A stretch of DNA of 64,000 bases from Alphaproteobacteria bacterium (GTDB lineage: Bacteria > Pseudomonadota > Alphaproteobacteria > 16-39-46). The stretch covers positions 105,695 through 169,694 of the forward strand of contig JAGYKM010000001.1 of assembly GCA_018401675.1 (NCBI GenBank). Direction: 5' to 3'. Positions 4,025-63,761 of the stretch are shown here, in pieces; positions within the stretch are counted from its first letter, which is position 1, and each line of letters starts with the position of its first letter. The notes beneath the pieces were generated by a model that was not told where the DNA came from, searched no databases, and worked only from the letters and a program-made list of their open reading frames with translations. The position numbers and the translations under genes are program-made.

Positions 4025-4722
4025 ATTACCATGGATAAGGGTTGGTATAGGTCAATTCCCAAAGGAGAGACTTGGCATTTATAGGCACAGGATTCCACAC
4101 CGAGAGATCTGGCTTTTAAAAAACGTATTTTGTACTCGGGGTCAATATCATCATTAAGGGTAAAGGAGGTGACGTCGCTGCGTTGCACTACGAAAACCAT
4201 CATGCTTCTGGCGCCAGAAGCTTTTAGGGTGATTAATTCGTCAAGGTGCTTTCTGCCTCGAGTCGTAGGAGAGTCAGGAAAGGCAGCGTGCTCCTTCCAT
4301 TTCATCTGTACGGATTTGACCTCGACATAACAAGGAGGCAAGCTATCATTTTGTAATTTGAAGTCGAGCCGACTACGGCTAGAAACTTTGGGCTCTCTAT
4401 GGATAAGAGTATATCCTGTTAAAGAAGCAATTCGGTCTTTTAAAAGAGCCTCATAGACTAGTTCATTAGGCAAATGGGTATTAATACCTACTATAGTTTC
4501 TTCTTCTTGCGAGAGCTCCCAGGTGTATGAAAGTTTGCGAGTGGGAGAAGGCGCGTGGCGTACCCAAACGGGCGTCCCTGGCAAGGTGACCCCAAGCATA
4601 GCCCCTGGATTAGGGCAGTGAGCGGTAACCATTTCTCCGGTGGACAGAATTTGAATATCGGCAAGGAAACGCTTATAGCGTTTGATGAGGCGTCCTTGAA
4701 TGAGTATAGAAGGGTAGATCAT
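4021..4722 (-). CDS. sfsA: Sugar fermentation stimulation protein SfsA family
   Basis: 233 aa with 'GRLIKRYKRFLADIQ...HCPNPGAM...YVEVK', typical of SfsA. The start overlaps the glpT/uhpC stop (ATGA). Confidence 0.7.
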   Translation of the reverse strand: MIYPSILIQGRLIKRYKRFLADIQILSTGEMVTAHCPNPGAMLGVTLPGTPVWVRHAPSPTRKLSYTWELSQEEETIVGINTHLPNELVYEALLKDRIASLTGYTLIHREPKVSSRSRLDFKLQNDSLPPCYVEVKSVQMKWKEHAAFPDSPTTRGRKHLDELITLKASGARSMMVFVVQRSDVTSFTLNDDIDPEYKIRFLKARSLGVESCAYKCQVSPLGIDLYQPLSMVI

Positions 4723-4825
4723 TGAAGAGGTCCCTAAGGTGTGAAAGATTTTGTGGGTGACGTACCTCTAAAGAGATACACCTTGACAGGGTTATGAAAC
4801 CTAGGTAGCACAAAAGGAACGGTCT

Positions 4826-4911
4826 GCCCAGGTGGCGGAATGGTAGACGCGCTAGATTCAGGTTCTAGTGAGCTTTAGCTTGTGGAAGTTCGAGTCTTCT
4901 CCTGGGCACCA
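4826..4911 (+). tRNA. tRNA-Leu (anticodon CAG) with long variable arm
   Basis: Sequence gcccaggtggcggaatggtagacgcgctagattCAGgttctag...gttcgagtcttctcctgggcacca. It has a 7-bp acceptor stem, D and T arms, a long extra arm, and an encoded CCA. Confidence 0.85.
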
Positions 4912-9512: not shown

Positions 9513-12236
<2,724 letters not shown>

Positions 12237-12342
12237 CTTTTTAGCGTACAGAAATAAATCTCTATACTCATTAATTAAGTACAGCCTCATAATCTTACAT
12301 ATTTCTCTTTCTTAGGCAAAGATACAGAATGCTTTAGAATGA

Positions 12343-12458
12343 CTTGGTGGTTTTAGCGAGGGTGTCACACACGATCCCATACCGAACTCGACAGTGAAAC
12401 CCCTCAGCGCCAATGGTACTATGTCTTAAGGCATGGGAGAGTAGGTCGCTGCCAGGTC
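12343..12458 (+). rRNA. rrf: 5S ribosomal RNA
   Basis: 'cttggtggttttagcgagggtgtcacacacgatcccataccgaactcg...gcatgggagagtaggtcgctgccaggtc' is a canonical 5S. It is flanked by a 12-bp perfect inverted repeat (aatgctttagaa / ttctaaagcatt) and then a T9 run. Confidence 0.95.
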
Positions 12459-22939: not shown

Positions 22940-24337
22940 ATGTCTATTGTATCGCCTCTTTTGTTATCAGGTGCTCAGGTCTTTCCTCTAGTCGAGGGCG
23001 GAAAGGGTGTTGGTGTATCTAATGGTCTAACGGCAGGTGCCTGGGCTAAAGCGGGGGGCGTAGGGACATTTTCTGGAGTTAATGCTGATTTATTGGATGA
23101 TAATGGGGTGTATGTGCCTCTTGTTTATCAAGGCAAAACCCGTCGAGATCGTCATGATGAGATGATTGCCTACTCTATCGAGAGTGGTATTTCTCAGGCT
23201 CGACGTGCTTTTGATGTGGCTGGCGGTGCCGGACGCATCCACATCAATGTCCTGTGGGAAATGGCGGCTGTAGAAAAAGTGCTTCACGGTATTTTGTCTC
23301 GAACCAAGGGCCTGATTCATGGGGTGACTTGTGGTGCAGGTATGCCATATCGTCTGGGAGAAATTGCCGCTCAATACGGGGTTTATTTTTATCCTATTGT
23401 ATCTTCTGGGCGGGCTTTTCGGGCTCTTTGGAAGCGTGCGTATCATAAAACAAAAGACTGGCTGGGTGGCGTGGTATATGAAGATCCTTGGTTGGCAGGA
23501 GGGCATAATGGCCTCAGTAATAGTGAGAACCCTGTAGAACCCCAAGATCCATACCCAAGGGTAGCTGCACTACGCGCCGTGATGAATGAAGCGGGTCTTA
23601 ATCACGTGCCTATAGTGATGGCGGGTGGGGTTTGGTATTTGAGGGATTGGAAAAATTGGATTAACAATGAAGAGCTGGGGCCTATTGCCTTTCAGTTTGG
23701 AACGCGTCCTTTGTTGACTCAAGAAAGTCCTATTTCTGAAGCGTGGAAGAAAAAATTACTGACCTTGAAGCCTGGTGATGTTTATCTCAACGCTTTCAGT
23801 CCCACGGGCTTCTATTCTTCGGCGGTAGATAACGCGTACATTAAAGAACTGAAGGGACGGGCTGATAGGCAGATTGTCTTTTCTGTGGAGCCAAAAGGCG
23901 AGCATTCTACCCCCTTTCCAATTGGGCCACGTCAGCGGTTGGTGTACTTAGTTGAGGGCGATCGTGATCGTGCCCAACAGTGGATGGTCGCAGGGTACAC
24001 TGAGACTCTTAAAACGCCTGATTCTACTTTGATCTTTGTGACGCCGGAAAAAGCCCAAGAAATAAGGCAAGACCAGGTAGATTGTATGGGGTGCTTGAGC
24101 GCTTGCAAGTTTAGTAATTGGGCCCAATCTGAAGAAGGAACCACGGGGAAGAAAGCTGATCCTCGCTCTTTTTGCATTCAAAAAACCCTTCAAGCAATAA
24201 TCCACACGGATGATGTAGAAACTCAGCTTATGTTTGCGGGTCATGGTGCCTATAAATTTGCGTCTGATCCTTTCTACGCCCATGGACATATCCCCACAGT
24301 TCAAGAACTGGTGGATCGGATCTTAACCGGCGACTAA
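22940..24337 (+). CDS. NMO/FabK-family FMN-dependent oxidoreductase (nitronate monooxygenase-like TIM barrel), unusually long at 465 aa
   Basis: The N-terminal 'GGKGVGVSNGLTAGAWAKAGGVGTF' matches the NMO motif 'GGMaggvst.eLaaAVsnAGGlG'. The insertions, length and substrate are unknown. Confidence 0.45.
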   Translation: MSIVSPLLLSGAQVFPLVEGGKGVGVSNGLTAGAWAKAGGVGTFSGVNADLLDDNGVYVPLVYQGKTRRDRHDEMIAYSIESGISQARRAFDVAGGAGRIHINVLWEMAAVEKVLHGILSRTKGLIHGVTCGAGMPYRLGEIAAQYGVYFYPIVSSGRAFRALWKRAYHKTKDWLGGVVYEDPWLAGGHNGLSNSENPVEPQDPYPRVAALRAVMNEAGLNHVPIVMAGGVWYLRDWKNWINNEELGPIAFQFGTRPLLTQESPISEAWKKKLLTLKPGDVYLNAFSPTGFYSSAVDNAYIKELKGRADRQIVFSVEPKGEHSTPFPIGPRQRLVYLVEGDRDRAQQWMVAGYTETLKTPDSTLIFVTPEKAQEIRQDQVDCMGCLSACKFSNWAQSEEGTTGKKADPRSFCIQKTLQAIIHTDDVETQLMFAGHGAYKFASDPFYAHGHIPTVQELVDRILTGD

Positions 24338-24829: not shown

Positions 24830-27202
24830 ATGCAAGCTGTGAATAAAATAGTAAAGATGCTCTTAAGTGTATGCGTGGTTTTCCTAATGGCATCGACCAT
24901 GGTCATGGGGATGCATCAAAGAGGCGGCATGACATTGGATGACGACAGAAGGCCCAGTGAGCATCTGTGTCCTATTACCCTTAACGTGATGAGAGACCCG
25001 GTTGTTGCCGCGGATGGACACTCCTATGAAAGAACTTCTATTGTGGAACAATTTAAACGTAGGGTCCAGAGTCCCATGACAGGCTTGCCCATAACCAGGC
25101 ACCTTTTTGATAATAATGCCCTACGAACAATGATTAGAGAATGGCAAGCGGGTAGGCAAAGTGAGCCTTGTGAGCTAGACACACGAGAGGCAAGCAGCAT
25201 AGCTCAACGGGTCAAAGATGAGTTTGAAAGACATGCGTATCTTTTAACCTCAGAGAAAGGTGCTTTAGGGCAGCATATTGTTGCTTTTTTAGGCAATACG
25301 GGAGCAGGCAAGAGTACCTTAATCAATTTTCTGGCTGGAAAAGCACTTAAGGTAGGTGACTATGGGGAGGATTACGTCTTAAGAGATAGTGGGGACACAA
25401 CAGCCATGATCATTGGACAAGGAGGAAGATCAGAAACCCTTTATCCAAAGTCTATTGATGTGGGAGAACTGCGATTTTTTGATCTTCCGGGGTTTAATGA
25501 CACCGATGGATCAGAGCGGAACTTAGTCAATGCAGCCTTTATTAGGAAGATTCTTTTGGATGCAGAATCGGTACGTTTTGTTTTTGTTGCGGGACAAGAT
25601 CAGTTTACGTCGGATCGGAGTGCTTCTATAAGAAAGATGTTTCAGTCCATTAATCGTCTATTTGTGGGAGAAGAAGAGATCAATTTTACGGATAATGGAA
25701 TATTTGTTGCGACAAAAGTGACTTGTGCTGCGGATAGGGACATAATCCCCTTTTTGTTAAGAAAAACAGATTCTTCTGACAAAGAAGAGCTGCAAGAGCA
25801 GTTGGATGCTTGGTCGAATAACGACAAAATAGGTCGTATGTTTCATCCTTTGCTTGGCGCATCCAATGAAGCCATGGGCGATGAGATCCTAAGACGCATC
25901 CGAAACGTGAGACCAGTGAAGGTTCGAGGCGTTAATGTAAGTGCTCTGTATCCACCCGAAACAAAAACAGCTTTAGAAAGAATGTTTTCGAGTATGATGG
26001 AAGGCGCGTTAGAACAGAAGAGAGCAGCCCCTTTAGAAACACTCAGTCAGTACAACGAAGCCATAAGAGAATACAGAGACGAAAGATTTTGGGAACTGTT
26101 GGATGCTGATCTTTGCGTGAAGGAGCAGGCTATGAGATTGCTGAAAGAGTTTTGCATTACGCCTTACACTAAAGCCCTTAAAGATTTTGAAAAAAACGAG
26201 GCAATAAGGCATCAAGCGCACATTCAGAATCTGGAAGAGAAGAAGCAAGCTCGGGTGAGCGATATTGAGGATAGAACGGAAGAGAGAGCCAAGAGGGTTA
26301 TTGCTTCCATATTTCCAAGACCACAAGGAGAAGATGTTGTGCCTTTTGATTTTGCCTATCACAAAGACTACTACGAAGGGGTATGTGGATCAGTATCAAT
26401 CACCCAGCTGGCTACTGATGCCACGGAACAAGAGCTCGTGAGACAGCATTATGCCGGTGTCATCAGTCGTCATAGTCACGACCAGATGATGCGTTGGCAG
26501 GAAAGATTTAGTGGGGTTGCGGAGCTATTCAGGGAAGTTGCCCAAATGAAAAAGGAATTAGAAGCCTTGCGTGGAGAAAAGGCTGAAGGTGCCACGCTTG
26601 TGGCGCAACCTGAGAGGGTATCGATCCCAGAAGTTGCTTTGGGACACGAAGCGGTTTACGAAAGATTTTTAAAAGGAGTCTTGGTTTATCGCCCAAACCC
26701 AAACAGCGATGAGGGAAAAATAGAGCTCCCTATTGCCGCGTTAGAAAATCCCCTTGAGGGCACCTTTGATTTATCTAACTGTGGTGATGCGGGACAGTAC
26801 TTAAGTATAGCGACAGGGTATCGCAAGTATGTTAATGCTGAAAATGCCAAGAAGGTTGAAATCTGGATCGCACCGAGATTTTTGATAGAAAAGGACATAA
26901 GAGGACCGGCCCGACATCTAGCACCTATCATGGGGGCGTGGGATAAGACTACCGTCCCGGTTGGCCTTTTCTTCAATTGGGGAGGATGGAATGAAATGGA
27001 TTCTTTTGATTATGCCGTCACCCACACGCGCAAGAAGCTATGTAGCATGCATATGCACAGCGTGTATGCATCAGCTTCCGGCGCAGGATTAAACGGGCAT
27101 AAGCCACAAAACAGTTACATCTGTATGGCAAAAGAGTCGAGGTGCCCGGTATGCGTCGTGGCGGAGGTTGGTCATCCAGATCATTTCATGTTTCGTTTAT
27201 GA
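24830..27202 (+). CDS. Chimeric U-box (E3 ubiquitin-ligase fold) + P-loop GTPase (AIG1/GIMAP-/MMR_HSR1-like) protein with a coiled-coil and unknown C-terminal domain; candidate secreted effector
   Basis: U-box: 'CPITLNVMRDPVVAADGHSYERTSIVEQF...LPITRHLFDNNALRTMIREW' aligns motif-for-motif with eukaryotic U-boxes (CPISLELMRDPV..GQTYER.SI..W...P.T...L.PN..LR.LI..W). GTPase: G1 'GNTGAGKST', G3 'DLPGFND'. The N-terminus is hydrophobic. Confidence 0.8.
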   Translation: MQAVNKIVKMLLSVCVVFLMASTMVMGMHQRGGMTLDDDRRPSEHLCPITLNVMRDPVVAADGHSYERTSIVEQFKRRVQSPMTGLPITRHLFDNNALRTMIREWQAGRQSEPCELDTREASSIAQRVKDEFERHAYLLTSEKGALGQHIVAFLGNTGAGKSTLINFLAGKALKVGDYGEDYVLRDSGDTTAMIIGQGGRSETLYPKSIDVGELRFFDLPGFNDTDGSERNLVNAAFIRKILLDAESVRFVFVAGQDQFTSDRSASIRKMFQSINRLFVGEEEINFTDNGIFVATKVTCAADRDIIPFLLRKTDSSDKEELQEQLDAWSNNDKIGRMFHPLLGASNEAMGDEILRRIRNVRPVKVRGVNVSALYPPETKTALERMFSSMMEGALEQKRAAPLETLSQYNEAIREYRDERFWELLDADLCVKEQAMRLLKEFCITPYTKALKDFEKNEAIRHQAHIQNLEEKKQARVSDIEDRTEERAKRVIASIFPRPQGEDVVPFDFAYHKDYYEGVCGSVSITQLATDATEQELVRQHYAGVISRHSHDQMMRWQERFSGVAELFREVAQMKKELEALRGEKAEGATLVAQPERVSIPEVALGHEAVYERFLKGVLVYRPNPNSDEGKIELPIAALENPLEGTFDLSNCGDAGQYLSIATGYRKYVNAENAKKVEIWIAPRFLIEKDIRGPARHLAPIMGAWDKTTVPVGLFFNWGGWNEMDSFDYAVTHTRKKLCSMHMHSVYASASGAGLNGHKPQNSYICMAKESRCPVCVVAEVGHPDHFMFRL

Positions 27203-27215
27203 ACTAAAAAAATGA

Positions 27216-28152
27216 TTAAACAAGTGACCCAGCAGCCACGCATGGACCCAGACTCCAACATGAAAAGAGACTGGGCAGAGACGTTTGCACACAAGATGCA
27301 AACGTCTCGATCGATGATAATCCTAATTTCAGCCAGCGTGTCCATTGATCGATGTACCGACGCAACCGCTTTGTTTTATCAAGGTCAGAAGAAGCCTGTG
27401 CGCGCAACGATAGGAGAAGGTTTTTAAAATAGTCATCACAAGGAGGGGCTTCGTTCACTTGATATAAAGATATATCCCGTGTTTCTGCTTTTTTTTGATA
27501 GCGACGGGAATTGGTCTTCCTGGGCGGGCGCTCATAAAGCGCGCTGGCACGTTCGTGAAAACGCCTGATAGTTTCTTTGGCAAGGAGTATTTTTTTGTGC
27601 TCAAAGTAATAAGCTAAAAAGGTAAAGCCTTGGCTTATTTTTCCAATGTAAGTTTTTGAGGAGTGAAGGTGTAGTTTTAGTTCTGCAATAATCTTATGGG
27701 TACGTCTAACAACCTTACGCAAAGCGGTTTTACTTTTGGCAAAAACCACCCAATCATCCATAAAACGGGAATAAAAAACCATCTTGAATTGTCCCCATGG
27801 CTTGATCAAGAGGCATTAAGTCGATAGCACCAAGCAAGGGAGATCAAGGACTCCCCATAGGAATGCCTTTTTCAAGATAGTCATAGAAAATGCCGCCATA
27901 GGTTTTCGTACGATGGCATGCTTTGCTAATAAGGCTTAAAAGAGCAGGATTCTTAATGTAAGATTCAAGAATGCCCATTAAAACGTCAAAGTTAATGGAG
28001 TCATAGTACCCTTTAATATCACTCCGCATCACGTAATGATAATTAGGTAAAGCCCTATGAGTATCGTGATTACACATTATGGCCTTTGATATGATAACAG
28101 GATTATGGAATATGGTGGCCCATTTGAGATTCAATGGCTTGGGTGATGAGCT
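27216..28152 (-). pseudogene. Degenerate reverse transcriptase (group II intron / retron-like RT), 5'-truncated and frameshifted; retroelement remnant
   Basis: Two out-of-frame ORFs carry RT motif 3 'SDIKGYYDSINFDVLM', motif 4 'GIPMGSP', motif 5 'RFMDDWVVF' (YADD-type) and motif 6/7 'LHLHSSKTYI...GFTFLAY'. The N-terminal motifs 0-2 are absent or degenerate, and no intron domain V was found. Confidence 0.6.
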
Positions 28153-29875: not shown

Positions 29876-31072
29876 ATGTCCGATTTAACAAGAAAACCTC
29901 CAAAAGGGGGAAAGATTTTGTTGGCTGAAGGACCTTGGGGAAAGGATCCACAACGTGGATCTAAGCCAGAGTCTAAGGGGCAAGAAGGAAATGATCCTTG
30001 GGGCTCTCAAGCCGATGGTCTGAAAGATATTGTATCGGGGGCAAAGGAATTTTTTGATAAGTTTTTTAAAGATACCTCTTCCCATCGGAAAAAAAGCAGC
30101 CCCCCTATAAAGGGCTTTAGTCCAAAAGGAATTATTCTTTTAGTCGGAGTTGTATTGCTTGCCCTATGGCTAGGCCAAGGGTTTTACCGAGTGCAGCCTG
30201 ACCAAAAAGGGGTGGTATTGAGATTTGGAAAATGGGTTCGTACCGATTTACCAGGTTTGAATTATCACCTGCCGTTTCCCATAGAAACAGTTTTTTTACC
30301 CAGCGTAACCCGCGTCAATCGAGTGGATATAGGGTTTCGTCCTGGATCCGGTGATGTGAAGCAGATCCCTGAAGAAAGTCTCATGTTGACGGGAGATGAA
30401 AACATAGTCGACATTAACTTTACTGTCTTTTGGCTTATTAAGGATTCTGGGGCTTTCTTATTTAATATAAGATCTCCAGAAGCTACAGTAAAAGCCGCAG
30501 CGGAGAGTGCTATGCGGGAAGTTGTCAGCCATACGCCTATTGCTCAAGCTTTGGCGGAAGGCCGTAAAGTAATTGAAGATGATGTAAGAACACTTCTTCA
30601 AGCCCATCTTAATCAATATGGTTCAGGGATAGAAATAACCGAAGTGCAGCTTCAAAGAGTTGATCCACCAAGTGAGGTCATTGAGTCCTACAGAGATGTT
30701 CAAAGAGCCCGCACGGACTTTAGCCGCCTTAAGAATGATTCGGAAGCTTATCGAAATAAGATTATTCCAGAAGCTCGTGGAGATGCTGAGCGTATTTTAC
30801 AAGAGGCAGAAGGCTACAAAAAAAGTGTGGTAGCTCATGCAGAGGGAGAAGCAAGCCGCTTGAATTCAATTCTAGCTGGGTACGCTACAGCGCCTCAAGT
30901 GACTCAAAAGAGGCTTTACATTGAAGCTATGGAGTCTGTGTTAAAAGGGGCAAAAAAGGTGATTTTGGATAAGTCTGGATCTGGTGTAGTCCCTTATCTT
31001 CCTTTAGACGCTTTAGCGCCCAAATCTTCTGTGGAAGAGAATCCGCAATCTGAAGAAGGAGACGTTTCATGA
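29876..31072 (+). CDS. hflK: Protease modulator HflK (SPFH/band 7)
   Basis: 398 aa with an N-terminal TM and an SPFH domain ('NYHLPFPIETVFLPSVTRVNRVDIG...'). It overlaps hflC (ATGA). Confidence 0.85.
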   Translation: MSDLTRKPPKGGKILLAEGPWGKDPQRGSKPESKGQEGNDPWGSQADGLKDIVSGAKEFFDKFFKDTSSHRKKSSPPIKGFSPKGIILLVGVVLLALWLGQGFYRVQPDQKGVVLRFGKWVRTDLPGLNYHLPFPIETVFLPSVTRVNRVDIGFRPGSGDVKQIPEESLMLTGDENIVDINFTVFWLIKDSGAFLFNIRSPEATVKAAAESAMREVVSHTPIAQALAEGRKVIEDDVRTLLQAHLNQYGSGIEITEVQLQRVDPPSEVIESYRDVQRARTDFSRLKNDSEAYRNKIIPEARGDAERILQEAEGYKKSVVAHAEGEASRLNSILAGYATAPQVTQKRLYIEAMESVLKGAKKVILDKSGSGVVPYLPLDALAPKSSVEENPQSEEGDVS

Positions 31073-31944
31073 TGAACCATTTGTGGGCCCGATTTAAGGG
31101 ACTTATCCTGGTGACGGCAGGCGTTTTGGCAATTTTGGTTTGGGCGTCAGCTTTTATAGTTACTCAATCTGAAATCGCTCTGTTACTGCAAATGGGCCGG
31201 CCTATAAAAGCTGTGGATACGCCAGGCTTGTTTTTTAAAGTGCCTTTTATTCAAAACGTGATTACTTATGATAAAAGATTGATTGATGTGGATCTCCCAT
31301 CAGCTGAGATTATTTCTTCTGATCAAAAGCGATTGGTGGTGGATTCATATGTGCTTTATAAAATTACCAATCCACTCCAATTTTATGAGACTCTGGGTAC
31401 AGAAGAAGTGGCGAGAACCAGGCTCCAAACTCTGGCTGGAGCTAGTTTGAGGCGGGTATTAGGAAACAATCCCCTGGCCAACTTACTTTCGCAAGATCGG
31501 AAGCATATTATGGCGCAGATTCAAGAAGGTGTATGGAAAGCCGCGCAGCCTTTCGGTATTGATGTTGTTGATGTGAGAATCAGGCATGCGGATCTTCCTA
31601 AGGCGAACAGTGAAGCTATTTATCTTCGGATGGAAAGTGAACGCAAGAGAGAAGCTAAGGAGTTTCGGGCTCAAGGAGAAGAAGAAGCACGGAAAATACG
31701 CTCTCATGCGGATAAGGAGCGCATTATTTTGCTTGCCAATGCGGATAAGCAATCTCAAAAACTAAGAGGCGAAGGTGAGTCTGAAGCCATTACACTTTTG
31801 GGTCGTATTTTTTCCAAAGATCCTAAATTCTTTGAATTTTATCGATCCTTAGAAGCCTATAAAAATGCCCTAACCCCGTCAACCACCACCTTGGTGTTAG
31901 AGCCTTCGGGAGACTTTTTTAAATTCTTCAAACGAGGTGCCTAA
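31069..31944 (+). CDS. hflC: Protease modulator HflC (SPFH/band 7)
   Basis: 291 aa with a TM plus SPFH domain, paired with hflK. Confidence 0.85.
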   Translation: MMNHLWARFKGLILVTAGVLAILVWASAFIVTQSEIALLLQMGRPIKAVDTPGLFFKVPFIQNVITYDKRLIDVDLPSAEIISSDQKRLVVDSYVLYKITNPLQFYETLGTEEVARTRLQTLAGASLRRVLGNNPLANLLSQDRKHIMAQIQEGVWKAAQPFGIDVVDVRIRHADLPKANSEAIYLRMESERKREAKEFRAQGEEEARKIRSHADKERIILLANADKQSQKLRGEGESEAITLLGRIFSKDPKFFEFYRSLEAYKNALTPSTTTLVLEPSGDFFKFFKRGA

Positions 31945-32017
31945 GACAAAGTCATCCAAAAAGAGTATTCAAATGAGGGGTATTCTTCAAAGAGTCTAAT
32001 ATCAAGGAAGACATATA

Positions 32018-33609
32018 ATGCAGGGAGTTGCCAAGAAAATAACCCACGAGGGGGGGCGATGGGGAGATAAAATTTGGTTTTTCTCCGGTGCTTCTTGCCC
32101 TTGTTATTATAGGAATATTGGGAAAAACGGCCTCTGAAAAGAACCCGAGAAATGTTCTTGCCGGCATAGTTTTGCAGATGTTGCTCAACAAATACTTCCC
32201 ACTGTGGTTGATGTTTCAGGAACGAGCGCCCCAAGTGAATCGGGGTCGGATGGTGGCTCTTTGGGAGGCGCGCCTCATGGGGATCCCCGGCTTGCTCCAA
32301 GTGGCGGGCATCGCCGCTCCTTGGGAGGCTTTGTAGTAGACCCTTCAGGATATATTTTGACCAACGGACATGTCATTTACGAAATAGAGGCAGTGACCGT
32401 ATCCTTATCTGATGGATCGGTATACCCAGCGGAAGTTATTGGAAAAGATGAACGCACTGACCTGGCTCTTTTGAAATAAAAACGCCTATGAAATTGCCTT
32501 CATTGTCCTGGGGCGACTCCCACCAAGCGCGTGTAGGAGACTGGGTATTAGTGGCAGGAAGTCCTTTTGGATTTGGACGGTCGATTTCTGCAGGTATTAT
32601 TTCAGCTCGAGCTCGTGATATTTCTAAGATGTCGGGAGAGGGAGGACCAGAGGGTTTATTTGTGGGTTATGTGGATGATTTGATTCAAACGGATGCGGCT
32701 ATTAATCTGGGCAACTCAGGAGGGCCCATGGTGGATGTCCAAGGAAATGTGATCGGCGTTAATGTGGCTATTTATTCACCATCGGGGGGAAGTGTAGGTA
32801 TTGGTTTTGCGGTTCCGGCTTGTGTAGCTCAACGGGTGTATGAAGCTTTACGCGCAAAGGGCCATGTGTCTTATGGGTGGATAGGCGTGAGAGTGCAAGA
32901 GGTGGACGATTTTATAGCGACTTCATTGAGGTCACAAGAATACTATAAAAAGGGCGTCAAAGGCGCTTTGGTGAGTGGTATAGACCCGGAAGGATCAGCA
33001 GCAAAAGCTGGTCTGGAGCTTTCGGATATTATTCTTTCATTTGGGGGGCACCCCATAGAATCCTACGATCGTCTCACGCGCATTGTGGGTGAAACGAGTC
33101 CTGGAAAATCCGTTTCAGTTCGTTTTTTACGTGATGGAAAGGTTCTTGATAGAAAAGTAAGGGTGGAGGCATGGTCTTTAGATAAAGGTACTCAAAAAAA
33201 CCTTCCATCTCATGTAGAGCCCTCTTTTCTTCCCTATTCTGCCGATATGCCTGGTTTATTTAGAATGGATCTTTTAGGGATATCTTTGCTCCCATTAACT
33301 GCTTCAATGAGTGGAGCTTTGTACCTACTTGAGGGGACAAAAGGACTGTACGTGGTCCAAAGCAATGGAACAGGTGAGACAGTCTCTATGACGATGGGGG
33401 GTATAAGGGCTGGAGATGTAATTGTGGAGGTTAATAATGAACCAGTGGGGTCTCCTCAGCGCCTGAATGATCTTTTGGCTGCGTGGCAGAAGGAAAATAA
33501 GAGGACGCTTTTGCTAAAAATTTGGCGGCAAGGTCAAGTTCATTACATCGGGGTAGCTTTGCCTTCAGAAAAAAAAGATCATGAAATGAGTTCTAATCTT
33601 TCTTCCTAA
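32018..33609 (+). pseudogene. htrA: Periplasmic serine endoprotease HtrA/DegP (trypsin + 2 PDZ), interrupted by 2-3 single-nucleotide frameshifts (genuine pseudogene or homopolymer sequencing errors)
   Basis: The pieces are in three frames: a signal region 'LLALVIIGILG', 'SFADVAQQILPTVVDVSGT...YILTNGHVI...DERTDLALLK' (catalytic His), then 'GDSHQARVGDWVLVAGSPFGFGRSISAGIISA' (catalytic Ser) plus PDZ domains. The breaks are at the G7 run 32050-56, at ~32135-32170, and at the A-run 32477-32482. Confidence 0.75.
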
Positions 33610-33639: not shown

Positions 33640-34632
33640 GTGACCTCAACCCACTCTCCTATTCTTGTTGAAAAAAATCAGGACAAGGCGTTGCCAGTGG
33701 TAATTCTCGCGGGAGCAACAGCCAGCGGAAAATCTGCCTTGGCTTTAGAGATTGCCCAAGCGGTTGGAGCTGTTATTATCAATGCGGATAGTATTCAAGT
33801 TTATAAACAGTTGCCCACACTCACTGCTTTTCCGTCCCAGGAGGAGTGTCTAAAGGTTCCCCATCTGCTTTATGGACAGCTTTCTTTAGAAGTGAAAGCG
33901 ACAGCTGTGTGGTGGCGTGACCAGGTAATGACCTTATTAGGTCGTTGTTACGAAGAAAGACAAGTTCCCATAATAGTAGGCGGCACTGGTTTTTATATCC
34001 GTACATTGCTTCACGGGATAAGCCAGATTCCCTCTGTGGATCCTGTTGTTTTTGACCAAGGGCGCAACAGGTTAGCTTCTGAAGGATCCCAGGATCTCTG
34101 GAGAGCTCTTAAGGAAGTTGATCCCATAAGTGCTTCAAGAATTGAGCCCATGGATTCCCACAGAGTCTTACGGGCTTGGACGGTATGGTGTTCCAGTGGC
34201 CAACCTCTGTCTTCGTGGCAGACTCAAGCCACCGGGGGCATGAATTCAGATCCCCGATTTGAAGGGATTAACGTTTTTTTGAACCCTTCTAGGCCTCTCT
34301 TAAAAGACCGAATCACACAAAGATTAGAACAGATGGAGATGAGGGGTGTAAAAGAGGAAGTGGATCACTTTCTTAATGTCCATCAAGGCGTGATAACACC
34401 GCTCCATAAGGCCGTTGGTGTGGAGGAAATAGGCGGTTTTTTAAGGAAAAAATGGAGCTATGAAGAAGCAAAAGTTCGGATGAATTATAAAACTTGCCAA
34501 TTAGCAAAGAGGCAAGTGACTTGGTTTAAGCATCAATATGATCACTCCATATTATTGTCGGAGCCTGATTATGAAAAAAGCCGCCATCATCTTTCTCCTT
34601 TGCTCCGTCAACTTAAGAAAGTGAGTCGATGA
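33640..34632 (+). CDS. miaA: tRNA dimethylallyltransferase MiaA
   Basis: P-loop 'GATASGKSALALEIA' plus the MiaA core; hflKC-htrA-miaA synteny. Confidence 0.85.
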   Translation: MTSTHSPILVEKNQDKALPVVILAGATASGKSALALEIAQAVGAVIINADSIQVYKQLPTLTAFPSQEECLKVPHLLYGQLSLEVKATAVWWRDQVMTLLGRCYEERQVPIIVGGTGFYIRTLLHGISQIPSVDPVVFDQGRNRLASEGSQDLWRALKEVDPISASRIEPMDSHRVLRAWTVWCSSGQPLSSWQTQATGGMNSDPRFEGINVFLNPSRPLLKDRITQRLEQMEMRGVKEEVDHFLNVHQGVITPLHKAVGVEEIGGFLRKKWSYEEAKVRMNYKTCQLAKRQVTWFKHQYDHSILLSEPDYEKSRHHLSPLLRQLKKVSR

Positions 34633-35090: not shown

Positions 35091-36332
35091 TTACTTATCA
35101 CCACCCACTGGGGTTTTTCCAGAAAACTTTTGTTCCAGCTTTTGGAGGAGCCTTTCCGTTTCAGCATTGCTCGACGGAGTGCGCTTCGGTGCCGATAAAG
35201 TTGCTGATAACGGAACACGGGCATGGTTTTTTTGAAGCCCTATTCCTGGACGCCTCTTGCCCTTAGTGCCTGTATTGGTAGGAGAGAGAGGCAGACTCCT
35301 TGATAGCTGATCTGAAGAATAATCGGAGATCCCTTGAGCGTCAGGAGCGAGTTCCGCTTTTGCCGGTTCTTCATCCCTAGCTATTGTACTTTCCTGTTGT
35401 GTTATTCCAGATGCTTCTTCTGACAGGGGCACCACAGGCAAGGCTCTTTGAGGAAATCTTCTGGCAGTCGGTATATTGGCGTAAGCTACTTTAAATGTCT
35501 CAAAAGACTGCAAATCCTGATCTGAATAGGGAAATCCTGTTTCTTGAGATCCTAGATAGATAGGCCCCTTTACGTCTTCATCAAAATGCTCTCCCAGAGC
35601 GGCATAAAGTTTGCTAAGAGCGGGCTTAGCTTGATCCCAGATGGCAAAAAGTTCAGGATCAGATGTGGGAAAAAGAACCTTGGGGTTTTTTAAAGTGGTA
35701 AATCGGTATCCTAACCCAGCGCTTTCAAAGAGATCAGGTTTTTCTACCAGTAATCGACTTAACCGGACAGGGCCATAAGCCTCAGCTAAGCTGCTAAAGT
35801 AATCACTCTTGAGTCCTTGCTCTGGGGCCTCTAGTGAAGCATCCAATTCTTCGGTCAAAGCACTAGAGGCGAGAGCGGAATAGTGAGCCTGGCGTGAGGC
35901 AGAAAATTTTTGCTCCAAGCGGCGCCCGTTACTGTCTCCATATAGCCATGAAGCGTTATAAGGGATCACACCTGATGATTTTTGGAGGCGTGATTCAAAG
36001 GTGTCTCTAATCTCTGAAAGCGTGGTTCGCGCTTCTTGAGAGAGGGGTTGAGTTTCTGTATGCTTATCTATGAGGCCAGAAAAGAGAGAGATTTGATTAA
36101 GAAATAGTAAATCTTCACCGATATCGCTAATGCTTTGTATGTGCTTTGTATGTGCGGCATCATTGGCTTCAACTACTTGAGGGGCTGGTAGAGCCTTTGC
36201 AACTCTTTCTGCACCAGGGTCTTCTGGATTTACTTGCGGTTTGACTGCCATAAGAGGGTTTCCAGTCAAAGACAAAACAAGTGCAGCGAAAGAAAGAGAG
36301 GGTGTATATATTCGAGATGATTTGTTATTCAT
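35091..36332 (-). CDS. Secreted hypothetical protein (413 aa; signal peptide, Pro/Ser-rich C-terminus); candidate surface or effector protein
   Basis: N-terminus 'MNNKSSRIYTPSLSFAALVLSLTGNPLMA'. No recognisable domain. It contains an 11-bp tandem duplication at 36131-36152. Confidence 0.4.
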   Translation of the reverse strand: MNNKSSRIYTPSLSFAALVLSLTGNPLMAVKPQVNPEDPGAERVAKALPAPQVVEANDAAHTKHIQSISDIGEDLLFLNQISLFSGLIDKHTETQPLSQEARTTLSEIRDTFESRLQKSSGVIPYNASWLYGDSNGRRLEQKFSASRQAHYSALASSALTEELDASLEAPEQGLKSDYFSSLAEAYGPVRLSRLLVEKPDLFESAGLGYRFTTLKNPKVLFPTSDPELFAIWDQAKPALSKLYAALGEHFDEDVKGPIYLGSQETGFPYSDQDLQSFETFKVAYANIPTARRFPQRALPVVPLSEEASGITQQESTIARDEEPAKAELAPDAQGISDYSSDQLSRSLPLSPTNTGTKGKRRPGIGLQKNHARVPLSATLSAPKRTPSSNAETERLLQKLEQKFSGKTPVGGDK

Positions 36333-37706: not shown

Positions 37707-38708
37707 ATGAAGCGATATTCTTACTCAGACAAGGCTATAGACCAAGCAGTTGGTACTCTAAGAGACGGCGGGCTCGTGTGCTTTCCCACTGAGACCGTGT
37801 ATGGCCTTGGTGCAGACGCAACAAATGATGAAGCTTGCAAGAATATCTACCGCGTAAAAGGACGCCCTTCTGTTAACCCTCTTATTGTTCATTGTGATTC
37901 CTTAACCCAAGCTGAGTCTATAGGTTTTTTTTCCCCTATGGCAAAGATGCTGGCTACTCTATTTTGGCCTGGTCCATTGACACTTATACTCCCCCTTAAA
38001 AAACCTCTTGCCTGTGCTTCTGTGGTAGTAGCGGGATTGGAGACTGTAGGTATCCGCCTGCCTGCTCATCCGGTGGCCCGAAGGCTTCTTGAAGCTTACG
38101 GTAAACCCATTGCTGCCCCTAGTGCCAATCTTTCGGGTTATCTCTCTCCCACAGCCGCAGATCACGTCGAGAAGTACTTTAAGGATACCCCTGGTATTTT
38201 AATAGAAGGTGGACATTCTTCGGTAGGGCTGGAGTCCACTATTGTGGATGTGACCCAAGATCCTCCCCATATCTTACGTTATGGGGGATTAGATGTGGAT
38301 CGTTTGCTTATGGTTTATCCTTTTATGGAGTTTCAAGGCACTAAGGAGGGGGGTTCAATTACATCTCCGGGTCAACTTCTTGCCCATTATGCGCCTCGGG
38401 TGCCCTTACGATTGAATGCCACTTCGGTTACTAACCAAGAAGCATTGCTGGCCTTCGGCAAACCTTTGAAAGGAGCGAAGGTAACCTTTAATTTGTCTTT
38501 AGAGCAGTCCTTGTTGGAAGCGAGTCATTGTTTATTCCAAGGACTTCATTGGTTAGAGGAACAGCCGGGAATTCAAGGTATTGCGGTGCAATCTATTCCT
38601 GAGATAGGATTGGGTGTTGCCATCAATGATCGATTAAGACGAGGCGCTCAGGGTCCGAAGATTAAAAATGGTGATCTTCCTACTGCCGCGAAGATCTGCG
38701 AGATATAA
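37707..38708 (+). CDS. tsaC: L-threonylcarbamoyladenylate synthase (YrdC domain + Sua5 C-terminal domain)
   Basis: 'GGLVCFPTETVYGLGADATN', 'VKGRPSVNPLIVH', 'AAPSANLSG' are YrdC motifs. The C-terminal ~120 aa is a Sua5-type extension. Confidence 0.8.
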   Translation: MKRYSYSDKAIDQAVGTLRDGGLVCFPTETVYGLGADATNDEACKNIYRVKGRPSVNPLIVHCDSLTQAESIGFFSPMAKMLATLFWPGPLTLILPLKKPLACASVVVAGLETVGIRLPAHPVARRLLEAYGKPIAAPSANLSGYLSPTAADHVEKYFKDTPGILIEGGHSSVGLESTIVDVTQDPPHILRYGGLDVDRLLMVYPFMEFQGTKEGGSITSPGQLLAHYAPRVPLRLNATSVTNQEALLAFGKPLKGAKVTFNLSLEQSLLEASHCLFQGLHWLEEQPGIQGIAVQSIPEIGLGVAINDRLRRGAQGPKIKNGDLPTAAKICEI

Positions 38709-38922
38709 TCCCAGATCTTGAGAAAGAAAGGATATTTTGTCCAAATAAGAACTTGAATTTTACAAGCTGTAATGGTTGACTGATAGGGGACTGCACAGGA
38801 AGAAATAGAAAAGAGTCTTATGCTTACAAAAGTGATATTCTTGCTAAACGTGAGGGCTTCTTTTTTATGTAGTTTAGTCCAAAAGCAATGAACGAGAGAG
38901 CAAAAAATAAAAGGATTATAGT

Positions 38923-39354
38923 ATGACATCACTTTCTTCAGGTTCCTCAATTTCTCCAGACTACAAGCCTACTCCCGACGAACCTTATATGAATCCAATG
39001 CAATTAGCTTACTTTAGACAAAAACTTCTTTCGTGGAGGAATAGTCTTTTGCAAGGCGCAGAGGATACCATTCACCATCTTCAAGAAGAAGATCACAATG
39101 AGCCTGATCCTACCGATAGAGCTGCTTCTGAGACGACCAGGGCTTTTGAATTAAGAACACGGGATAGAGCACGTAAGTTGATTATGAAGATAGATGCGGC
39201 GTTGGAGCGGATTGAAGAGGGCGTATATGGGTATTGCCAAGAGACGGGTGAGCCTATTGGACTCCCAAGATTGAGGGCGCGTCCTATTGCCACGTTATGT
39301 TTGGAAGCTCAAGAAAAGCATGAAAAGCTAGAGCGAATGTATCGAGATGACTGA
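38923..39354 (+). CDS. dksA: RNA polymerase-binding transcription factor DksA (variant with incomplete Cys4 zinc finger)
   Basis: Coiled-coil plus a C-terminal 'GVYGYCQETGEPIG...ATLCLEAQ'. Only 2 of the 4 canonical Cys are present. Confidence 0.7.
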   Translation: MTSLSSGSSISPDYKPTPDEPYMNPMQLAYFRQKLLSWRNSLLQGAEDTIHHLQEEDHNEPDPTDRAASETTRAFELRTRDRARKLIMKIDAALERIEEGVYGYCQETGEPIGLPRLRARPIATLCLEAQEKHEKLERMYRDD

Positions 39355-39490
39355 TCAGTAAGGTGAAGAAGAGTAAAGGCGGTGTTTCCTGCAGGTTCCT
39401 AATGGAATTTAGGTGACGGAAGGTATGTTTTGAAGTGGATTTTCCTCAAAAATGGTCCTTTGTAGATAGATAGAATGAAATAAAAGGACC

Positions 39491-41395
39491 ATGGTTTTGA
39501 GGTATGGTGATGGATTATCGCGTAGAGGAGTAGGGTATAGGCTGTTTGGCCTGGCCGTAGGAATAGGTTTTTGTTTTCCTAAGATCAGTCTGGCCACTCC
39601 CCAAGCTTCTTACTATGAAACCAGACCCATTATGATTCCTGTTTCCACTTCTTTTATAGAGTCTGAAAGTGCCTCTCTTCCTGTTCCCGGAACGAATAAT
39701 AATCCCCTGTATCCCTTAAGTCTATTTGAAGCTCTTCAAGTGAGCCCGGAGTTGTCCGCCGTTAAAACGGCAGGTACTGAAAAAGTACTTTTTCCTGGCG
39801 CACCCTCGGGGGGCAGTTTGGTGGTCTGGGAAGGGGTGGTTCTCAATGATCCATCCACGGTTCGAGGTTCTTTTGATTTTTCCCTACTAAAAGGAGCTTC
39901 TTTTCAGACAGTGAATCTTGAGAGAGGAACAAATCCACTGGTGACCACGGCGGCTATGGGGGGTATTATGACTTTGGAAACTCCCGAGAGACTGTTCCTT
40001 GCCCAGAAAATGGATAGTTCTTCTTTTGTAGGTCAAGGCGACTTGGATTCTATGGGAGGAAGATTTGTTCAGTTAACTCAATTTGTGCCTTTTTCTCAAG
40101 GTGCTTTATATCTTGGAGGTTCCTTTTCCGACACACCTAGATCCCCTGTGGGGACAGCCCCTTTACGAAAACAGTCTCGGAGGAAGGATGAATCTTTATC
40201 CCTTACAGGAAATTATGGATCTGTGGATAAGACCCAATTGGTTTTTCTATGCCGAACCGCTGATGAAAAATTTGATGATGTCTATGATTCCCAAGGTACT
40301 TTCCAAGGTGCTTCTCACTACCTTATTGGTCGTTTAAAGAATCTTTCCCAGGATGGACGGACACGCTCAAGCATGTCGATTGGGCAAATTATGTATGATC
40401 GAAGGGCTTATCATCAAAGTCAAACTCTTTCGAAATATAAAGGTATGAGTCAAACTCTGAAGGTAGATAGCACTCATATTGTGCAAAAAGGGATTCAACT
40501 TCAAGGGGGAATTGAAACTGAAAGGGAATCAGCTAAAGATTATGGCTTCTCAGAAGTGAGGGATACTATAAGCCTTTTTATGGGGCCCAAAGTGAGGTTT
40601 CACGAATATTGGACAAGTGAAGGGTCAATCAGAGTGAATCAAGGTCCCCATGATACCCTAATGGGTATTATGACGGGTGTTGGTTACCAGAGAAAGGGTG
40701 ATGGGTTCTTTATTAAAGCAGATGTGGCCCAAAAAAGACCTAGCCTTTATTATCTGCATGCACAAGACTATTCTTTACCTCAATTTGGGACCTTGCCTCA
40801 GATTTCTTATCCTGTAGGTAACGCGTCTTTAAAAAAGGAGTCCTCTTGGGGGGTACTGACTCGGGTGAGCAAAGGCTACTGGGAAGGCCAAATGGTAGGG
40901 GGGTTCGAGATTTTTTACAGAAAATTTGAGAACTATATTTATCCTACAGCAACCATTCCGCGGACCTATACGCAAGGTGGTGGGGCAAGCACCTGGGGAT
41001 TTGGGCCTAAAGTACAGATTGGAACTCACTCAATTCGGTTTTTGAGTCAAATTCAGTGGTTTCAGGTGTCTCATAGCTCTCAAGTACCGGACTTAGTTTT
41101 GAGTCCAGCTCATGCTCAGGCTCTCAATCAGCTCTCTTATGACTCTCCAGACACGACCTCTCCAAAGTTCGGAGGAATCGTGTCTATTACCACTCACTAT
41201 AAACCCTATTCGACTGTGGGCCAAACGAAGAGCTATTCATTAGTGACCATGGGGATGCACTATGGCATTCAAGAGAATATCCTTGGATTTGTGCGTGTGA
41301 ACAATCTTCTGAATAAACGGATTCAAGACCCCTATGATTCTCTCTTGGAATTGGATCCTTTTAGTTTTAGGGTAGGTATCAAGATAGAACTCTAA
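39491..41395 (+). CDS. Large hypothetical outer-membrane/beta-barrel-like protein (634 aa), uncharacterised
   Basis: N-terminal hydrophobic signal 'LFGLAVGIGFCFPKISLA' and alternating amphipathic beta-strand-like segments toward the C-terminus. There is no TonB box and the protein does not end in a terminal Phe/Trp. Confidence 0.3.
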   Translation: MVLRYGDGLSRRGVGYRLFGLAVGIGFCFPKISLATPQASYYETRPIMIPVSTSFIESESASLPVPGTNNNPLYPLSLFEALQVSPELSAVKTAGTEKVLFPGAPSGGSLVVWEGVVLNDPSTVRGSFDFSLLKGASFQTVNLERGTNPLVTTAAMGGIMTLETPERLFLAQKMDSSSFVGQGDLDSMGGRFVQLTQFVPFSQGALYLGGSFSDTPRSPVGTAPLRKQSRRKDESLSLTGNYGSVDKTQLVFLCRTADEKFDDVYDSQGTFQGASHYLIGRLKNLSQDGRTRSSMSIGQIMYDRRAYHQSQTLSKYKGMSQTLKVDSTHIVQKGIQLQGGIETERESAKDYGFSEVRDTISLFMGPKVRFHEYWTSEGSIRVNQGPHDTLMGIMTGVGYQRKGDGFFIKADVAQKRPSLYYLHAQDYSLPQFGTLPQISYPVGNASLKKESSWGVLTRVSKGYWEGQMVGGFEIFYRKFENYIYPTATIPRTYTQGGGASTWGFGPKVQIGTHSIRFLSQIQWFQVSHSSQVPDLVLSPAHAQALNQLSYDSPDTTSPKFGGIVSITTHYKPYSTVGQTKSYSLVTMGMHYGIQENILGFVRVNNLLNKRIQDPYDSLLELDPFSFRVGIKIEL

Positions 41396-50704: not shown

Positions 50705-51764
50705 ATGGTAGCAAAGGTAGTGCTTGCATTAGATGGCATGGGAGGAGAGTCTGCGCCAGATGTGGTCGTCCAGGGAGCTGCTTTAGCCTGGAAAAAAGCG
50801 CCTTATCTGAGTTTCAAAGTTTTTGGGGATAGTCAGCGATTGCTGCCATTGGTCAAAAAATATGGAAATAGTGACGTTTTCACAGTGGTTCATACAGATG
50901 GGGTCATTGATGATCATATGAAACCATCTCAAGCCATTCGATCAGCACGAGGCTCGAGTATGGCTCAAGCCATCCAATCAGTAGCTGATCAAGAGACCAT
51001 GGGTGTGGTTTCTGGGGGCAATACGGGAGCCTACATGGCTCTTTCCAAAATTCTTCTTAAAACCATTCCAGGTGTTTCTCGGCCTGCTATTGCCTCTTAC
51101 CTTCCCAACCGCAAAGGAGGCGAGACGGTCTTTCTTGATTTGGGCGCTAATGTGCTGTGTGACGAAGAAAATTTGTCTCAGTTTGCGGTTATGGGAAGTA
51201 TTTTTGCCCAACATGTTTTAGGGATTCATAATCCCCGTATTGGACTTTTAAATATTGGAGAAGAGGAGCTCAAGGGCAATCAAACCCTCAGGAGGGTTTA
51301 CGGTTTACTCAAGGGGCTTCCGTCACTCAATTTTCACGGATACGTAGAAGGGGATGACATCACTGCTGGCATAGTGGATGTGGTGGTGACAGATGGATTT
51401 ACGGGCAATATAGCTCTCAAGACTATTGAAGGCACAGCGCGACTTTTGAAATATTTTCTCAAGCAAGGATTCTGCGGCTCTTTGATGGGACGTTTGGGGC
51501 CTTATGTGTGCATCCTCTGCTCTACGGCAGGTTCAAGAACGAATGGATCCGAGCCGATATAATGGGGCTGCTTTTTTGGGTTTAAATGGGTTGGCCATAA
51601 AAAGTCATGGCTCTACCGATGCGCTTGGGTTTTCTAATGCAGTTGGGGTCGCTCTTGATATGCTTCGCCATGGTTTCAAGGCTCATATTGAGAGAGATAT
51701 AGAAAATTTAAGGGCCTATGAAGCGGCTATCATGTTGGATTCTAATAAAGATAGGTCACCATGA
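50705..51764 (+). CDS. plsX: Phosphate acyltransferase PlsX, C-terminal ~75 aa in a different frame (frameshift near 51500-51512)
   Basis: 50705..51562 encodes the PlsX core 'LALDGMGGESAPDVVVQGAALA...'. The ORF 51504..51764 encodes the C-terminus 'RMDPSRYNGAAFLGLNGLAIKSHGSTDALGFSNAV'. The junction lies in 'ccttatgtgtgcatcc'. Confidence 0.8.
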
Positions 51765-59342: not shown

Positions 59343-59479
59343 GAATAGACTTCCAAGAGTAGAGTGAGACCGGAAACGAAGGGGTGGTATTTCTGCCCGT
59401 AGGTGGTCAGAAAACTTGGGCAGTGGTTCTATTTCTAAGAGTGCAGATAACCATACCTTGGCAAAAAAGGAAACGAAAA

Positions 59480-59650
59480 ATGAACCTTAGACAAACAGTC
59501 AAAAGAATAGGACTGAGTTCAGTCATAATGGTCAGTCTCGGAGGTTGTGGGCATAAAACAGTGCCTATTAGGGCCTTTGATCAAGGATCGCCTTACACAG
59601 CTTCTGTGTTGTCTTTGCAAGAATTTGGAAACCGTATCCAATTCGCTTAA
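59480..59650 (+). CDS. Putative small lipoprotein (56 aa)
   Basis: 'MNLRQTVKRIGLSSVIMVSLGGC' is a lipobox-type signal (L-G-G-C). Confidence 0.3.
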   Translation: MNLRQTVKRIGLSSVIMVSLGGCGHKTVPIRAFDQGSPYTASVLSLQEFGNRIQFA

Positions 59651-59868
59651 TAATTGTACCAAAAGTATGACAACATATATGAGTCATAATTTTTAACGTT
59701 GTTGTGCACAAAAGGGCAGTCAGGTAAGGACTGGGAATAGGTATCGAGACGGCCGTTTGGCCCATAGGGACTAAAGAAGGGACTTTTTGTCCGCCCCAAG
59801 AAGAAATTAGGTTGCCAAGAGGTGGCCAAGGGCGTCGATTGTCAGCTTTGGGAAAACTGAATTCTTAA

Positions 59869-60195
59869 GGCCATGGAACAGCCACTGAATATGGTGATAT
59901 TGCTGAAAGCCAAGCTACCTATAAGGTCTTTGGACAGAAAGTTCCTTTTCATTCACTGAAAAGCTACTTTGGGCATACCTTAGGCGCTTGTGGCGCTCTA
60001 GAAGCTTGGCTGGGGATTGAGATGCTCCATGACCACTGGTGGGCGCCTACTCTTAACTTAGAGACCGTAGATCCTCGCTGTTCTGAGTTGGACTATGTGA
60101 CCAAAACTGGTAGGACTTTAGTCCTCGATACATTTATGACGAATAATTTTGCTTTCGGGGGCATAAACACCAGTTTGATATTCTCAAAAAGGTGA
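59869..60195 (+). pseudogene. 3'-terminal fragment (~108 aa) of a beta-ketoacyl-ACP synthase (FabF/KAS II-like); N-terminal ~300 aa absent
   Basis: Translation 'HGTATEYGDIAESQATYKVFGQ...SLKSYFGHTLGACGALEAWLGIEMLHDHWWAPTLNLETVDPRC..DYV...NNFAFGGINTSLIF' matches the KS C-terminal His-Gly-Thr / Lys / His motifs. An in-frame stop lies immediately upstream. Confidence 0.7.
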
Positions 60196-63689: not shown

Positions 63690-63761
63690 TACAGAAACTT
63701 GTCGTTCAGCGGTATTCCCTCCAAAAACTACCCAGACCGCATCATGTTTGGATGTGGTGGG

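Follow-up and report, generated by a model that had tools for sequence, protein, structure and literature searches.

The htrA/degP gene at positions 32018-33609 (plus strand) of a 64,000-nucleotide stretch of an alphaproteobacterial assembly (contig JAGYKM010000001.1; the whole stretch is called the window here) is not one uninterrupted open reading frame (ORF) as deposited, and three-frame translation showed that three reading frames are used across it. We found that three single-base changes, each in a run of identical bases, produce the split, and that ±1 homopolymer lesions recur in other otherwise intact genes of the window. We consider it likely that the htrA breaks are uncorrected single-base consensus errors of Nanopore sequencing at homopolymers. 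The organism itself most likely has an intact, functional htrA, which, judged from the corrected reading, would encode a periplasmic serine protease of the Do family that carries two PDZ domains.

Frame breaks in htrA

The gene runs from an ATG at 32018 to a TAA at 33607-33609, with hflK-hflC (29876-31944) on its 5' side and miaA (33640-34632) on its 3' side. A Shine-Dalgarno-like AAGGAAG (32004-32010, plus strand), read directly, lies 7 nt 5' of the ATG. This argues that ATG 32018 is the true start and therefore that the first break is real. Four segments follow one another on the plus strand. The first (32018-32056, window frame 2, MQGVAKKITHEGG) is the positively charged n-region of a signal peptide, and the second (32058-32138, frame 0, DGEIKFGFSPVLLALVIIGILGKTASE) supplies the hydrophobic core, FGFSPVLLALVIIGILG, and the c-region. 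The third (32138-32476, frame 2) starts KEPEKCSCRHSFADV and makes up the N-terminal half of the protease domain; it reads CSCRHSFADV and then TNGHV, with His118 at 32369-32371, and RTDLALLK, with Asp148 at 32459-32461. The fourth (32476-33609, frame 1) begins IKTPMKLP and holds the remaining protease domain, with Ser234 (32716-32718) within GNSGGP, as well as PDZ1, PDZ2 and the stop codon.

A preliminary description of this DNA had placed htrA in three frames. This was borne out by the translation and by two comparisons. The match to the NCBIfam profile TIGR02037 is split, with segment 3 (frame 2) covering profile positions 4-113 and segment 4 (frame 1) covering the profile from 119 on, and tblastn with P0007, an intact relative from Logan run SRR14932693, switches frame at the same point. 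These results confirm that the split of htrA over three frames is a genuine property of the deposited sequence.

The breaks could be placed exactly on the plus strand. Lesion 1 is the G7 run at 32050-32056, which has either one G in surplus (G6 expected) or two too few and moves the reading from frame 2 to frame 0. Lesion 2 is the A4 run at 32137-32140, which is one A short of the expected A5. Lesion 3 (32474-32479) is the A3 run at 32474-32476, one A short of the expected A4, and results in a frame-2 TAA at 32477-32479. The G7 run had been named in the preliminary description and stands; the second break had been assigned to a diffuse stretch at 32135-32170 and the third to an A-run at 32477-32482, which takes in the A5 run at 32478-32482, and for these the breaks are present but the sites are those given here. 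One added A at lesion 3 restores LLKIKTPMKLP, where P0007 has LLKIETPVSLP. Taken together, three single-base edits (-G, +A, +A) give a single 530-amino-acid (aa) HtrA without an in-frame stop, and we infer that the true run lengths at the three sites are G6, A5 and A4.

The frame-2 TGA at 32135-32137 is a by-product of the frame shifts. A lone TGA nonsense codon in frame 2, or reassignment of UGA, was considered in place of the two N-terminal frameshifts and was ruled out by codon usage and hydropathy. Over 32058-32135 the codon-usage log-likelihood was +7.5 in frame 0 versus -5.8 in frame 2. The best 15-residue Kyte-Doolittle hydropathy over the same interval was 2.57 in frame 0 versus 0.25 in frame 2, and 13 relatives gave 1.6-2.5. 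TGA is an ordinary stop in the window, where it terminates 11 of 42 intact genes. The predicted signal peptide is thus the frame-0 hydrophobic segment (2.57) with Lys residues ahead of it. From 32138 on, frame 2 is fixed by a CxC motif (32153-32161) that is kept in relatives, and CxC follows the hydrophobic core at a comparable distance, 11 residues in window HtrA and 15 in P0007.

Full-length HtrA might in principle be made from the deposited sequence by recoding, that is, by programmed ribosomal frameshifting, transcriptional slippage or phase variation at the G7 tract. Slippage at such a tract is conceivable in principle; the analysis gave no positive evidence for recoding. Three separate events (+1, -1 and -1) would be required, no X XXY YYZ slippery heptamer stands in register at 32137-32140 or 32474-32476, and runs of A3 and A4 are far too short for transcriptional slippage. 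P0007 encodes the protein as a single ORF, so that a shift is not conserved, and the same lesions are found in unrelated genes. We rejected recoding on the number of events, the lack of a slippery motif in register and the single-ORF relative, and give it next to no credence.

The corrected HtrA protein

After the three corrections HtrA matched TIGR02037 as one continuous alignment (profile 2-431 of 434, 361.1 bits). The intact P0007 scored 358.4 bits, and neither protein reached the curated cutoff of 416.2 bits. Since the intact relative also falls below the cutoff, the scores point to a divergent clade and not to decay. Pfam domains were Trypsin_2 (residues 104-248), PDZ_2 (288-382) and PDZ_6 (~461-503). 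In a 14-sequence clade alignment, in which window HtrA was placed after the three single-base corrections, His118, Asp148 and Ser234 were invariant. We conclude that htrA belongs to a divergent alphaproteobacterial clade and is otherwise an ordinary, member-like relative of the Do/HtrA family.

The corrected protein shares with the Do family (HtrA/DegP/DegQ, MEROPS S1C, TIGR02037) a signal peptide, two PDZ domains and a trypsin-like domain with the triad contexts TNGHV, TDLALLK and GNSGGP. The window clade departs from the family in that a CxC motif follows the signal peptide and an insertion, SKMSGEGGPEGLFVG, precedes the YVDDLIQTDA motif, and the deposited window gene differs in being spread over three frames. 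The CxC just past the signal peptide (32153-32161; residues ~46-48) was seen clade-wide as CSC, CIC, CEC or CDC and not in ordinary DegQ.

P0007, the closest intact homologue, is a single 541-aa ORF with 63% identity to window HtrA, and the gene order hflK-hflC-htrA-miaA is the same at its locus as in the window. The preliminary description had called the protein a near-perfect DegP with an intact catalytic triad context; the triad is indeed intact, but at 63% identity to the closest intact homologue "near-perfect" was too strong. The identity of HtrA between the window and the P0007 organism (63-67%) is inside the range of other orthologues, which extends from 56% for MiaA to 85% for HflC. 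At columns at least 90% conserved in 12 outgroup sequences, window HtrA has 3 private changes and P0007 has 9. The changes in window HtrA are all conservative (A to T, I to V and V to I).

We found no excess of non-conservative substitutions, no nonsense codons and no truncation in htrA. The sole exception to this picture, and the sole oddity of the corrected protein, is a missing Ser at 32324-32329 (plus strand), where a one-codon in-frame deletion leaves SLG-GF for SLGSGF; 12 of 13 relatives have Ser at this place and the remaining one has Ala. The deletion falls within the 430-bp stretch that holds the htrA frameshifts, and the missing codon is probably a Nanopore consensus error as well.

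The condition of the protein bears on the reading that htrA is a real, very recent pseudogene, in which slipped-strand indels followed by further hits would have occurred in a reduced-genome alphaproteobacterium. The losses would then belong to a continuing erosion of envelope and transport functions (htrA and the ddl-like, glpT-like and plsX genes described below). Homopolymers are natural indel hotspots, and the residue lost from the conserved SLGSGF motif also speaks for this reading. However, the three indels come with no substitution excess, as the count of private changes is lower than in the sister lineage and the profile score is equal. Bacterial mutation spectra hold roughly ten substitutions per indel; at that ratio a real htrA pseudogene should have gained about 20-30 additional substitutions and about one nonsense codon. 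We consider this reading unlikely.

Sequencing history and other broken genes

Three Logan contigs from run SRR14300309 were 100% identical to window positions 30692-31988, 3788-4853 and 38031-39705. SRR14300309 is a read set of BioProject PRJNA721826, from the Lake Shunet study (PMC8382752), and the window source is very probably the Lake Shunet bin M30B67 (JAGYKM000000000). This bin comprises 1,294,506 bp in 44 contigs, the longest of 223,501 bp, with a GC content of 43.1% and a coding density of 81.8% (PMC8382752 Supplementary Data). It was assigned by GTDB to a novel genus within order and family 16-39-46 of the Alphaproteobacteria, and its CheckM strain heterogeneity was 0 (PMC8382752).

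In the study, metaFlye assembled the Nanopore reads, which had a mean quality of 10.6 in the 3.0 m sample, and Pilon polished the result using Illumina reads of 45-100 nt; the assembly was then merged with MEGAHIT contigs by quickmerge, repolished and reassembled in Unicycler with Flye bridges (PMC8382752). The authors themselves cautioned that false ORFs arise from the many indels of long-read assemblies, and they discarded bins only when short-read coverage was below 80% (PMC8382752). A retained bin can therefore hold substantial unpolished Nanopore stretches. Homopolymer indels that are left without short-read correction fragment genes and are a standard failure of such assemblies (PMC9262707, PMC8812927). 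The source of the window is thus one of error-prone long reads with incomplete short-read polishing.

A family search of the window ORFs together with a codon-usage scan revealed further genes with the same kind of break. A glpT/uhpC-like sugar-phosphate transporter of the major facilitator superfamily (2586-4024, minus strand) lacks one T at the T5 run 3573-3577 and is split into ORFs of 155 and 324 aa; once corrected it matches the full TIGR00881 profile (2-379 of 379) with 367 bits. The plsX gene (50705-51764, plus strand) has one surplus base at GGGGCC, 51496-51501. After correction PlsX matches its full profile with 329 bits (cutoff 243), and in an alignment with an intact orthologue (81% identity) the lesion site is free of gaps. 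The neighbours of plsX, rpmF upstream and fabH downstream, are both intact. A ddl-like ATP-grasp gene (62462-63761, minus strand) lies in three frames, with single-base deletions at 62724-62726 (C3) and at an A-run at ~62674-62679. This gene is divergent and reaches only 117 bits against Ddl models. The position of a conserved N-terminus, VWVVFGGNTAERQVS, upstream of the first usable start codon suggests a third lesion near the start of the ddl-like gene (~63727).

In total we confirmed 7 lesions in 4 otherwise intact genes (htrA 3, glpT-like 1, plsX 1, ddl-like 2). Each of them is a ±1-nt change in a short homopolymer, and none of the seven is a nonsense codon. The preliminary description had set htrA against intact infB, pnp, rne and gltX; as a picture of the surroundings this was overstated, as at least three other genes of the window carry this kind of lesion. 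PlsX is normally indispensable where PlsB is absent. That plsX bears the same type of lesion as htrA argues for an artefact and against a pseudogene, as do the absence of nonsense codons among the confirmed lesions of the four genes and the presence of the same ±1 lesions in the glpT-like and ddl-like genes.

Two further loci are broken in another way. A group II intron reverse transcriptase/maturase remnant (27216-28134, perhaps to 28625, minus strand) consists of fragments that match profile positions 121-184 and 202-289. A frameshift and an in-frame stop (GSP*SPLLG) interrupt it, and it represents genuine mobile-element decay. A C-terminal fragment of a beta-ketoacyl-acyl carrier protein synthase (59363-60195, plus strand; Ketoacyl-synt_C 51-119 of 119) has an in-frame stop just ahead of HGTAT, with no space for the rest of the gene, and is a truncated remnant. 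Broken genes in the window are of two classes: old decayed remnants versus pristine genes with single-base run-length changes.

Other features of the window were also recorded. The 23S and 5S rRNA genes (9516-12457, plus strand) lie directly after lptB, with no 16S gene upstream within the window, which indicates that the rRNA operon is unlinked. Unlinked rRNA operons are common among reduced-genome alphaproteobacteria. Large intact ORFs without an NCBIfam match at the thresholds used are found at 24830-27202 (plus strand, 790 aa) and 39491-41395 (plus strand, 634 aa), and further ones at 22940-24337 (plus strand, 465 aa) and 35091-36332 (minus strand, 413 aa).

The short-read contigs provide a view of where the lesions lie. 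The contig beside htrA (L001) ends at 31988, 62 nt ahead of lesion 1, and the contig beside the glpT-like gene ends 211 nt from its lesion; all three recovered SRR14300309 contigs stop short of every lesion. Nine homopolymers of 6-7 nt lie inside these contigs, and all have the same length there as in the assembly; therefore the assembled sequence is correct where short reads exist. None of the contigs ends at a homopolymer. Local GC content was checked as a cause of a short-read gap, and only 32200-32299 was unusual (62% GC). Over 31989-32480 short reads were presumably absent or too sparse. The downstream runs of htrA (A7, A8 and four of G6/T6) are in frame, whereas A3 and A4 runs are hit. 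Since short runs are hit and longer runs are spared, the lesions form a spatial patch rather than a run-length-dependent pattern. The same observation weighs against a pseudogene.

These patches could have arisen as follows. The bin would have been built from low-quality Nanopore reads by metaFlye, Pilon, merging with short-read contigs and long-read-bridged reassembly; sequence covered by short reads would be exact, long-read indels would survive elsewhere, and errors would hence appear in patches. Incompletely polished R9-era Nanopore assemblies show the same ±1 homopolymer lesions and the same fragmentation of otherwise intact genes, several per 64 kb, and the Lake Shunet workflow and the authors' caveat also fit (PMC8382752, PMC9262707, PMC8812927). 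The window differs from such assemblies in that its lesions are mostly in runs of 3-5 nt while most runs of at least 7 nt are correct. This points to a local polishing gap and not to a genome-wide homopolymer problem.

When 7 lesions were placed uniformly over 49 genes in a simulation, at least three fell in one gene with P = 0.026, and three in one gene plus two in another, as in htrA and the ddl-like gene, with P = 0.004. The span of the three htrA lesions within the gene is not significant alone (P = 0.18), and their confinement to the first 460 nt gave P = 0.024 in a post hoc test. The clustering had been described as odd for random error. This holds against uniform error, but the assembly is a mosaic of stretches with short-read support and Nanopore-only stretches, in which errors should come in patches (PMC8382752). 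Multi-hit pseudogenes and patchy polishing alike predict clustering, and of the two we favour patchy polishing.

No independent sequence covering any lesion was recovered in genome scans, metagenome scans, protein searches or exact look-ups. A protein-query scan of genome contigs for a sister-strain htrA gave nothing, members of the HtrA clade alignment were at best 45% identical, and HtrA scans of metagenome contigs returned only relatives of at most 38% identity. No near-identical fragments spanning the lesions were found for the N-terminal 215 aa of HtrA or the C-terminal half of PlsX in a search that appears to return only proteins of ~0.66-1.75 times the query length, to which short fragments would be invisible. 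By exact look-up the 373-aa and 91-aa htrA ORFs occur in the NCBI record only and rpmF occurs in no record; contigs with hflC, sfsA and dksA were found in this way, and none of them extends to a lesion. A literature search for order 16-39-46 found no papers. Further relatives of this uncultured lineage were seen in public runs, namely L003 (SRR8570466) at 78% and L002 and L089 (SRR14932693) at ~73%, the latter with htrA and plsX intact.

A sister population at 94.8% nucleotide identity (L086, run SRR29774407) has two indels relative to the window, both intergenic. Its presence in another run would allow the window to be a mixed-strain consensus or mis-join, that is, a chimera of close populations with indels where the long-read consensus averaged haplotypes, and the workflow does merge assemblies of different sources. 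Against this, the CheckM strain heterogeneity of M30B67 is 0, the short-read contigs match the flanks at 100% identity, and the lesions consist purely of ±1 homopolymer changes, around which substitutions do not pile up. We regard a chimera as very improbable.

Origin of the breaks and its consequences

Our data thus leave residual Nanopore indels and a recent pseudogene to be weighed, the two options that the preliminary description had left open. Several points weigh against the sequencing errors that we favour. The lack of short-read support at the three htrA sites is deduced rather than read off the reads, and the type of run SRR14300309 is unstated, although its error-free contigs suggest Illumina. 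A change of ±1 in a homopolymer is also the commonest natural inactivating mutation, and a change of 3 nt, as at the absent Ser codon, is less typical for a Nanopore consensus error. Two or three hits per gene, as in htrA and the ddl-like gene, also have the look of a true pseudogene, and such multi-hit clustering is unexpected under uniform error. Finally, the genome is small (1.29 Mb) with a low coding density (81.8%), and the window contains the group II intron and ketoacyl synthase remnants, both with in-frame stops, so that the organism does have real pseudogenes.

Split genes and young pseudogenes are known from reductive genomes such as Rickettsia. The window organism is like these in its small genome, its unlinked 23S-5S rRNA and some eroded remnants, and its frameshifted genes retain recognisable pieces in the original order. 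However, true young pseudogenes usually mix lesion types and show relaxed substitution, whereas the window genes have only ±1 indels and no detectable relaxation. The corrected HtrA, with a profile score equal to that of its intact relative and few private changes, is without decay, which favours an artefact, and errors of just this type are known to remain after assembly by this method. Of the two options, homopolymer read errors are therefore favoured and very recent pseudogenisation is disfavoured.

The breaks are probably unimportant biologically, as the organism most likely has a normal htrA. They are a flag for data quality: the public bin has unpolished Nanopore stretches that split at least 4 genes in 64 kb. 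Pseudogene counts, metabolic reconstruction and inference of genome reduction from this bin, including loss of htrA, plsX and ddl, are unreliable until it has been re-polished. If the lesions were real, the window would be a snapshot taken just after the joint inactivation of htrA, plsX, the ddl-like ligase and the sugar-phosphate transporter, a prospect that we hold to be quite improbable. It would then record gene loss at an unusually early stage in a novel alphaproteobacterial lineage, probably a host-associated one, in which envelope quality control and lipid and cell-wall functions would have been lost simultaneously and recently, ahead of substitutional decay.

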